Source: a virus (Duplodnaviria > Heunggongvirae > Uroviricota > Caudoviricetes). Taken from it: a stretch of DNA of 9,117 bases. The stretch's first letter is position 1, and every line of letters begins with the position of its first letter. The stretch is from positions 1 through 9,117 of the IMG/VR virus record IMGVR_UViG_2563366928_000004; one strand, given 5' to 3'. Under the pieces are notes generated by a model, which was given only the letters and a program-made list of their open reading frames with translations, made no database searches and had not been told where the DNA came from. Both the position numbers and the translations under genes were made by a program. This document shows positions 872-1,364 of this stretch, in pieces.

Positions 872-1123
872 ATGAAAATCAGAAATATTCTCGCTATCTC
901 CCTTGCAACATCATCCTTCAGTTGCCTGGCATTTAAATCCTCGCCCAATGTGCTACCAGGACCAACGAATCAACTAACTGCGGTAGAAAGTAAAATTATC
1001 GGACATTTTTATGCCCCACACAGTGCATTACCCGGAACAACCATCACAGGGACATGTGACGCCTCCCCCGTCCCGGGATGCACCTGTCCGTTTTGTACTA
1101 TGCTGCGTAGCCAAAACCGATAA
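872..1123 (+). CDS. Hypothetical small secreted protein, 83 aa, Cys-rich C-terminus (TGTCDASPVPGCTCPFC)
   Basis: In-frame ATG at 872 preceded by GAGG about 9 nt upstream. The N-terminus MKIRNILAISLATSSFSCLA looks like a Sec signal peptide. It is oriented opposite to the late operon, in the position where lambda carries bor. No family recognised. Confidence 0.4.
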   Translation: MKIRNILAISLATSSFSCLAFKSSPNVLPGPTNQLTAVESKIIGHFYAPHSALPGTTITGTCDASPVPGCTCPFCTMLRSQNR

Positions 1124-1184
1124 CATCCGCATTTACCTGGTATTACATGATGAGTTCACGCAGCGACTGATAGAGGAAGGAAAG

Positions 1185-1364
1185 ATGGTTAGTAAAAGCA
1201 AGGCGCATTGCCGCCGCATGCTGCAGGCATTGCAACAGACGAGAGCAGGTATTTTTGACCAGTTGGAAAACTGCCAGCATACTTTGCCCGAGTATATCGC
1301 CATCTCATCGGAAACCAGTGCAACTCTTATTCATCGGGTTCCACCAGAGAAAAAGAAGAAATGA
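1185..1364 (+). CDS. Hypothetical small protein, 59 aa (MVSKSKAHCRRMLQALQQTRAGIFDQLENCQHTLPEYIAISSETSATLIHRVPPEKKKK)
   Basis: ATG at 1185 with a strong Shine-Dalgarno (GAGGAAGGAAAG) just upstream; followed by the hairpin at 1371-1395. The longer version from 1011 has no comparable RBS and overlaps the previous ORF. Confidence 0.45.
   Translation: MVSKSKAHCRRMLQALQQTRAGIFDQLENCQHTLPEYIAISSETSATLIHRVPPEKKKK

Follow-up and report, generated by a model that had tools for sequence, protein, structure and literature searches.

What do two small reading frames on the plus strand, set between cos and a block of late genes on the opposite strand, contribute to the prophage that carries them? The question is raised by a 9,117-nucleotide (nt) stretch of viral DNA (record IMGVR_UViG_2563366928_000004, positions 1 to 9,117; hereafter the window), which represents a phage-21-like lambdoid prophage of Escherichia coli with its late-region/cos junction in reverse, so that the late genes occupy the minus strand. 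An earlier note, made from the sequence alone, had placed two small plus-strand open reading frames (ORFs) between cos and the late operon, in the position of a bor-like moron and opposite to the late genes. Both frames are found where that note put them, and they share the orientation of bor in phage 21. Our favored reading, to which we assign a probability of roughly 0.6 as a whole, is that the first frame (ORF1) encodes a secreted four-cysteine moron with Zur-linked chromosomal relatives and a role in the cell envelope under zinc limitation, and that the second (ORF2) is dispensable.

The first reading frame and its distribution

ORF1 extends on the plus strand from an ATG at 872 to a TAA at 1121-1123 (872-1123), contains CDASPVPGCTCPFC, and encodes a precursor of 83 amino acids (aa), divided into a signal (residues 1-20) and a mature part (residues 21-83). 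A Shine-Dalgarno (SD)-like AGAGGC lies at 859-864, 7-12 nt 5′ of the ATG. Because a purine-rich SD-like run at this distance and a Met-Lys start are conserved in nearly all family members, the start is placed at 872 and not at the upstream ATG at 803. Relatives are readily found. A word-indexed search returned 22, including full-length proteins of about 83 aa with 55-77% identity in Salmonella, Klebsiella, and Citrobacter; a profile search of 1.84 billion representatives returned 30 proteins; and a back-translated motif pattern, made by hand and run against species-representative genomes, hit 26 sites, all 26 of them in ORFs of about 80 aa with the same architecture. Residue, cysteine, and codon-alignment counts below refer to a set of 32 distinct members.

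The length of about 83 aa is kept in diverged homologs at 27-77% identity, and DNA similarity between the window and diverged loci is confined to 864 to 1123-1125, beginning 8 nt ahead of the ATG and ending at the stop codon; the conserved unit is therefore ORF1 itself. Nucleotide entropy by codon position across the 32 sequences is 1.02/0.79/1.57. Pairwise ratios of nonsynonymous to synonymous substitution rates (dN/dS) are 0.09-0.29, at synonymous sites that are saturated or nearly so, and stay at 0.16-0.25 within the mobile clade formed by the window, plasmid, prophage, and islet copies. Judged by these comparisons, ORF1 is a genuine gene, far beyond chance, and purifying selection within the mobile clade argues that its protein is used there. 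The conservation of reading frames, which the earlier note had named as a check, thus holds for ORF1 in diverged homologous regions. Two E. coli variants (P0003 and P0006) carry an internal stretch in another frame (...HFMPHTVHYPEQPSQGHV-TPP...) and regain the ORF1 frame just before PGCTCPFCTMLR; these shifts are either compensating indels that spare the cysteine module or assembly errors.

Existing annotations treat this DNA differently. The Prokaryotic Genome Annotation Pipeline (PGAP) calls ORF2 (WP_000253883.1) and skips ORF1, ORF1 is unannotated in ev017 and in most plasmid records, and family proteins are named "hypothetical" in every source. The phage 21 record (OL657228) annotates two minus-strand ORFs over the DNA of ORF1 and ORF2, CPT_21_74 and CPT_21_75, as small coding sequences with ribosome-binding site (RBS) features in the orientation of the late transcript. 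That the real coding lies on this strand, as part of the late operon, is highly improbable. The minus-strand frames match no PHROG, vary in length from one near-identical lineage to another (56 or 45 aa in the window; 40 aa is called in L045), and are struck by the same indel as ORF2. Furthermore, CPT_21_75 overlaps the 3′ end of ORF1, where the plus-strand frame is under purifying selection, and no conserved minus-strand frame was found in diverged homologous regions, similarity outside E. coli being that of ORF1 only. With ORF1 skipped by one annotation and the wrong strand called in the other, transcriptomic, proteomic, and transposon-sequencing analyses miss the gene.

The family is found in Enterobacterales of 15 genera or more, among them Escherichia, Salmonella, Klebsiella, Enterobacter, Citrobacter, Serratia, Pantoea, Raoultella, Buttiauxella, Kosakonia, Phytobacter, Siccibacter, Superficieibacter, and Dryocola. 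All-against-all clustering of ORFs in 34 loci revealed no neighboring gene that recurs across genera, and ORF1 is therefore a stand-alone cassette. Members of the mobile clade are found in varied settings: the cos-proximal slot of phage-21-like prophages; that slot in another type of E. coli prophage, where a DUF3950 gene follows ORF1; some 66 large, mostly conjugative Klebsiella plasmids (IncF plasmids among them), in which the gene is unannotated and a cos-like remnant is still attached; single-gene chromosomal sites in Citrobacter, one of them adjoining icd in C. koseri; and an islet in Salmonella subspecies salamae, indica, arizonae, and diarizonae (L006, L015, L017, L019, L042). In this islet the order is a PPC-domain gene, the ORF1 homolog, bor, and an omptin gene, flanked by genes for a SPATE autotransporter, an NEL E3-ligase effector, or SET-domain proteins, and the whole resembles a lambdoid moron cluster that has decayed and become a virulence islet.

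Prophage morons were recognized here by a location between conserved phage modules, opposite or independent transcription, presence or absence among related phages, and occurrence in nonphage contexts. ORF1, on the strand opposite to the lysis genes, sits between these and cos, is missing from lambda, and has nonphage copies. On one Klebsiella plasmid, pMR0617aac (L049 3536-5285), genes for a Fur-family repressor and a COG0523 GTPase lie about 0.7 kb upstream of the ORF1 homolog; the best match of the repressor is Zur and that of the GTPase is to ZigA, both sub-threshold, and the arrangement may reflect functional linkage or coincidence.

The ORF1 product and the Zur sites of its chromosomal relatives

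The N-terminus of the precursor (872-931, plus strand) is a predicted Sec signal peptide, MKIRNILAISLATSSFSCLA, with a predicted signal peptidase I cut between A20 and F21. The sequence criteria applied were a positive n-region, a hydrophobic h-region of about 10-15 residues, and small residues at −3 and −1 (A-x-A); ORF1 agrees with them throughout, its n-region being MKIR and its h-region 13 residues long. In 32/32 members the cleavage site has A or C at −3, A at −1, and F at +1, A20 and F21 being invariant, and by this prediction cleavage between the two is a rule of the family.

Position −3 of this site is also where a membrane-anchored protein might be suspected. In the E. coli/Salmonella/Citrobacter clade Cys18 is near-invariant and is preceded only by S or G, which is lipobox-compatible, so that Cys18 of SSF(S/G)C could be acylated once signal peptidase II has cut, anchoring the protein in a membrane as with Bor or the superinfection-exclusion lipoproteins Cor and Llp; moreover, bor and a TonB_C lipoprotein gene are neighbors of ORF1. 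We consider this very unlikely. SSFSC, with Ser at −3 and Phe at −2, is a poor lipobox when set against [LVI][ASTVI][GAS]C, no match was obtained to Lambda_Bor or any lipoprotein model, and the position of Cys18 is Ala in 19/32 members, which have a classical A-x-A|F site. At the level of the family a lipoprotein is rejected, given that Cys18 is not conserved outside one clade and that A20 and F21 are invariant.

The mature part of the predicted secreted protein has 63 residues and ends in a C-terminal module, GTCDASPVPGCTCPFCTMLR (residues 60-79; 1049-1108, plus strand), that holds Cys62, Cys70, Cys72, and Cys75. Exactly four cysteines are present in the mature part of 32/32 members, in the C-terminal motif GxC-x7-C-x-C-x2-C-x2-LR; C62, G69, C70, C72, and C75 are invariant, and the module as a whole follows the consensus G-T-C-x-A-x-P-V-x-G-C-x-C-x-F-C-x-M-L-R. 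Mean pairwise identity is 76% in this module, 47% in the signal, and 33% in the middle region, which is variable and rich in Pro, Ser, and Thr and contains a short conserved helix, E-x-x-I-x-x-x-F-Y-S-x-H. The earlier description of a signal peptide followed by a mature peptide of about 60 aa with four clustered C-terminal cysteines is thus borne out by comparison across the family.

The same holds for the remark that ORF1 resembles nothing recognized: nothing matched in Pfam (E <= 1), NCBIfam, PHROGs, or PADLOC, a profile search of Protein Data Bank (PDB) sequences gave only a chance match to SeqA (E = 1.1), and literature searches by topic, motif, and accession turned up no account of the family. 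Two metagenomic proteins of 611-627 aa (P0045 and P0047), large, low-complexity, Asn/Ile-rich, possibly eukaryotic, and with no Pfam match, carry 4-5 tandem copies of P[IL]PGCNCPKCTxLRN; the motif common to these repeats and to the ORF1 C-terminus suggests an autonomous module.

The clue to what such a protein may do, which the earlier note did not anticipate, comes from the chromosomal relatives. Among regulator consensuses scanned in the 250 nt upstream of each family member, the gamma-proteobacterial Zur box stood out, and scans with the CueR, CpxR, PhoP, PmrA, and OmpR consensuses over the upstream regions gave no consistent signal. The Zur consensus is GAAATGTTATANTATAACATTTC, and its sites overlap −10/−35 elements (PMC4219657, PMC2706843). 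The sites before family genes hold the core TGTTAT-N3-ATAACA, as in AATGTTATTTTATAACACT (Kosakonia) and AATGTTATTATATAACAAT (Buttiauxella). As a control, a Zur score (Zur19, out of 18) was computed at every position on both strands of every 8-kb locus, with upstream sites counted up to 300 nt from the gene. In 15/24 chromosomal loci no other site in the entire 8 kb matches Zur as well as the upstream one: four loci score 16/18 (Buttiauxella noackiae, Kosakonia, and two Phytobacter), three 15/18 (Pantoea, Raoultella terrigena, and Klebsiella WOUb02), three 14/18 (Enterobacter, B. warmboldiae, and Raoultella BIGb0138), and five of Serratia type 12-13/18. Scores of at least 14/18 occurred at 25 of the 258,680 positions scanned, and the chromosomal sites score poorly as Fur boxes. 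The promoters of the azt operon in Siccibacter and of a ZnuA-type transporter in Superficieibacter, which served as positive controls, each reach 16/18, and the site before the Siccibacter family gene has a core identical to that of the azt operator in the same genome.

Synteny points the same way. The family gene directly adjoins aztDCBA in Enterobacter/Klebsiella (L051), Dryocola, and Siccibacter; the L051 neighbors score 457 bits as AztD (cut-off 400) and 378 bits as AztC (cut-off 350). On sequence and synteny together, the chromosomal members very probably belong to the zinc-starvation (Zur) regulon. In Enterobacter/Klebsiella and Superficieibacter (L051 901-3637; L034; L039) the chromosomal family gene is part of an island by aztDCBA that also encodes a HemB paralog (a second porphobilinogen synthase), an amidohydrolase, an FAD oxidoreductase, and an unknown protein of 112 aa; it looks like a zinc-sparing island.

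The cysteine cluster could also be that of a toxin-like peptide. ORF1 might be a pre-pro-peptide whose pro-region, residues 21 to about 59, is removed, releasing outside the cell a disulfide-knotted peptide of about 24 residues that acts as a toxin, a signal, or otherwise on the host. The three-part conservation of signal, middle, and C-terminus fits a pre-pro-mature layout, size and cysteine clustering suit it, the motif recurs as an autonomous repeat in the unrelated large proteins mentioned above, and mobile copies travel on conjugative plasmids and in the Salmonella islet in the company of bor, omptin, SPATE, and NEL effector genes. We nonetheless hold it to be quite unlikely: there is no evident conserved site for processing, the middle region retains its helix, the absence of any Pfam match extends to the enterotoxin families, members are common in plant and soil Enterobacterales without known enterotoxicity, and Zur control suggests a physiological role, not that of a toxin.

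Our preferred reading of an exported protein with a zinc-limitation role has several observations to contend with. The azt synteny comes from one clade and counts as one association. AlphaFold2 models of the ORF1 product, with predicted local distance difference test (pLDDT) scores of 49 and 61, are of low confidence and leave it without a reliable fold; the better of them, at the same low confidence, places C72-P-F-C75 at the N-terminus of the terminal helix. Neither His50 nor Glu39 is invariant in the wider family, which weakens the case for a mixed His/Cys zinc site, and Cys4 zinc sites are unusual in the oxidizing periplasm. The window copy lacks the box of its relatives: within 300 nt upstream of ORF1 the best Zur19 score is 11/18, a level equaled or bettered by 23 sites in the window, so that zinc regulation of this copy is unsupported. 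The box is likewise absent before the other mobile copies, on the Klebsiella plasmids and in the Salmonella islet. Nor is there a convincing sigma-70 promoter between cos and ORF1, the sole match (851-879) overlapping the start codon. The missing Zur box of the mobile copies accords with a homology that begins only 8 nt before the ATG, and it fits a phage that took up a bare ORF1 coding cassette.

A second candidate regulator, Fur, was considered for the window copy and rejected. A Fur-box-like palindrome, AACGAGAATAATTATCACT, lies at 757-775, 115 nt 5′ of ORF1, and scores 15/18. It is part of the cos region, immediately beyond cosQ (747-753, carried over from the phage 21 annotation), itself close to cosN (about 724, matching the phage 21 genome end). 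Such sites are the best of their locus 108-137 nt before the gene in the window, in a TA464-like prophage (17/18), and on a Klebsiella plasmid (14/18); these three cases do not count separately, since cos-like sequence persists beside the plasmid copy too. In alignment the palindrome is contiguous with the conserved cosN-cosQ block, and it accompanies cos elsewhere, at about 3864-3882 in L009 and, as AGTGATAATGATTATCATC, about 34-52 nt from the end at the right end of lambda (L054). It thus belongs to the cos block and is present in lambda, which lacks ORF1. The cos-adjacent palindrome may be a Fur site or a packaging element.

Taken together, the favored mechanism would run as follows. The 83-aa precursor would leave the cytoplasm through Sec, and signal peptidase I would cleave it after Ala20, releasing a periplasmic or secreted mini-protein of 63 residues whose functional part would be the four-cysteine C-terminal module. 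In the oxidizing periplasm the cysteines would most likely form two DsbA-made disulfides, a Cys4 metal site being the less likely alternative. Because the chromosomal members carry Zur operators, and one clade has the gene beside aztABCD, we infer a role for the protein in the cell envelope when zinc is limiting or in the face of host nutritional immunity. It could be an accessory for zinc capture or handover, or a countermeasure to host defense that is co-regulated with zinc starvation, as is PliG, a Zur-controlled lysozyme inhibitor of E. coli that provides a precedent for defense wired to zinc starvation (PMC4219657). Lambdoid phages would have taken the coding cassette alone, running from a point 8 nt ahead of the ATG through the stop codon, and placed it by cos in the orientation of bor, where, lacking the Zur operator, ORF1 would be expressed in the lysogen under different control.

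The second reading frame and the prophage around it

ORF2 (1185-1364, plus strand; ATG 1185, TGA 1362-1364) begins after a gap of 61 nt from ORF1 and encodes 59 aa (WP_000253883.1; phrog_4843, function unknown). The strong RBS that the earlier note had seen, GAGGAAGGAAAG, does precede it, and the hairpin said to follow it is present, GC-rich, at about 1370-1395 between the convergent ORF2 and TonB_C genes. Over 1355-1410 its minimum free energy is −19 kcal/mol (z = −3.46 against shuffles), its U-tract, UUCUUCC, is weak, and a consensus terminator scan did not call it; a weak or bidirectional terminator is possible. An Rfam scan of 872-1486 returned zero RNA families. What did not stand is the conservation of the frame: no ORF2 homologs were found beyond E. 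coli copies of at least 95% identity, and in one lineage (L045-L048) an extra A after window position 1199 shifts the frame after codon 6. There the ORF with the strong RBS stops after 24 aa, leaving a residual 48-aa ORF (P0024) that has no SD sequence and for which the assembly collection has 483 indexed blocks. The remaining ORF2 differences in this lineage are three nonsynonymous and one synonymous, and ORF1 is intact there, with only S23P and V67I changed.

These data bear on whether the two frames form a functional two-gene moron operon in which ORF2 is a real small cytoplasmic protein. The well-spaced, strong SD sequence, the shared strand, the short gap, and the common downstream hairpin all speak for an operon, as do the PGAP annotation, the existence of phrog_4843, and the fact that ORF2 is intact in phage 21 itself and in roughly 88% of E. 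coli genomes with the region. Set against this are the lack of diverged homologs, the absence of ORF2 from every other ORF1 context, the lack of any Pfam or NCBIfam match (phrog_4843 is the only one), the frameshift in a lineage of 483 blocks that keeps ORF1 intact, and the excess of nonsynonymous changes among the few differences. Among 1224 complete genomes with the region, 143 (about 12%) fall in the 95-99% identity band, whose sequenced representatives are frameshifted. An operon of this kind is thus unlikely. ORF2 may be translated in the window; as it shows no sign of selection in these comparisons, its standing as a functional gene is doubtful, and it is most likely a young dispensable ORF or a noncoding spacer ending in the hairpin. 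In related prophages the ORF2 slot holds an unrelated DUF3950 gene; a diverged DUF3950/YlcI protein, the product of the gene usually found on the plus strand near cos, was rejected as an identity for ORF2, which has no PF13132 match and gives no BLASTP alignment to the DUF3950 protein of L009 at E <= 100.

The surroundings are those of a common prophage. Over window positions 600-2000, identity is 100% with many E. coli chromosomes and about 99.7% with the phage 21 right end (OL657228), and the region occurs in 1,486/5,426 complete E. coli genomes, which puts ORF1 in about one quarter of them. ORF1 and ORF2 lie between cos and the minus-strand late genes, which include a Nu1-type small terminase gene (start 495), a TonB_C lipoprotein gene (1487-1813), the Rz/Rz1 spanin pair (2124-2597 and 2186-2371) among the lysis genes, and a phage lysozyme gene (3079-3612). 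The minus strand further encodes a DUF1327 protein, an S21-type holin, a SASA-esterase protein, and a truncated DNA methylase. The TonB_C lipoprotein (108 aa; MKRRLLLLFLLSVLAVGC|S...) consists solely of a TonB C-terminal domain (Pfam TonB_C, 7e-13; TIGR01352), and phage 21 has the same; a free periplasmic domain of this kind could compete for TonB boxes, blocking TonB-dependent phages or colicins. In phage 21, bor sits between the TonB_C gene region and Rz (L001 1571-1864). It is absent from the corresponding place in the window (1868-2123), where some 250 nt hold no convincing ORF. Like many lambdoid prophages of Stx-like type, this one has, upstream of its late region, minus-strand segments at 8044-8233 and 8311-8560 with a match to the STnc100 small RNA (131 bits; gathering score 47) and three tRNA genes (Arg-tct, Arg-tcg, and Met/Ile-cat).

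Significance and comparison with known systems

A more specific proposal, which we advance tentatively and hold less likely to be right than wrong, is that the ORF1 family is an unrecognized part of the Zur-controlled response to zinc starvation, perhaps a periplasmic or extracellular factor that captures zinc or hands it over in concert with AztD/AztC, ZnuA, or ZinT, and that lambdoid phages, IncF plasmids, and the Salmonella islets took it up repeatedly and uncoupled it from Zur. If so, lysogens would make a nutritional-immunity factor constitutively or under new control. Should the link to zinc be true in any form, the family would be a new, very small exported player in bacterial zinc acquisition and nutritional immunity, and would clearly exemplify how a phage can take up a metal-starvation gene as a bare cassette and place it under new control. 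With or without that link, ORF1 defines a well-delimited, testable new family of small proteins with an unusual conserved PxxGCxCxxCxxLR module.

The closest parallel in position is Bor (lambda bor/Iss), together with the other cos-side lambdoid morons, which occupy the same slot in an orientation opposite to the late operon, encode small exported envelope proteins, and occur as single-gene cassettes outside phages as well; the ORF1 homolog even lies directly upstream of bor in the Salmonella islets. In contrast to Bor, ORF1 has no match to PF06291 (Lambda_Bor) at E <= 1, by a search that did recognize the true bor genes beside the Salmonella homologs, and it is no canonical lipoprotein, has a four-cysteine C-terminal module, and has chromosomal relatives that carry Zur operators.

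In its predicted export by Sec and in the Zur boxes of its chromosomal members the family resembles the small periplasmic proteins under Zur control, such as PliG and ZinT, which are Sec-exported from genes preceded by a GAAATGTTATANTATAACATTTC-type Zur box. It differs from them in that there is no homology, the mature product is much smaller (63 aa) and rich in cysteine instead of histidine, and the window copy has no Zur box. ZinT binds zinc mainly via histidines. The AztD/ZrgA-AztABC uptake systems share a neighborhood with the family, the gene being adjacent in Enterobacter/Klebsiella, Dryocola, and Siccibacter, in an island with the hemB paralog; however, the family gene forms an independent convergent transcription unit that has a Zur-like site to itself, and most members do not lie beside azt.

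The heat-stable enterotoxins STa and STb offer a likeness of build, with precursors of about 70-85 aa, a Sec signal, a C-terminal cysteine cluster, and carriage on mobile elements. ORF1 departs from them in having no Pfam match (E <= 1), a broad presence in nonpathogenic Enterobacterales, and no evident processing of a pro-region; its cysteine spacing, C-x7-C-x-C-x2-C, also differs from the pattern of these toxins. Unlike the precursors of class II microcins and of ribosomally synthesized and post-translationally modified peptides, ORF1 has a Sec signal and not a leader of double-glycine type, and no exporter, immunity, or modification gene recurs beside the family across genera. The kind of element is a familiar one, a prophage moron for a small exported protein; the family, its motif, and its probable ancestry in zinc starvation are new.

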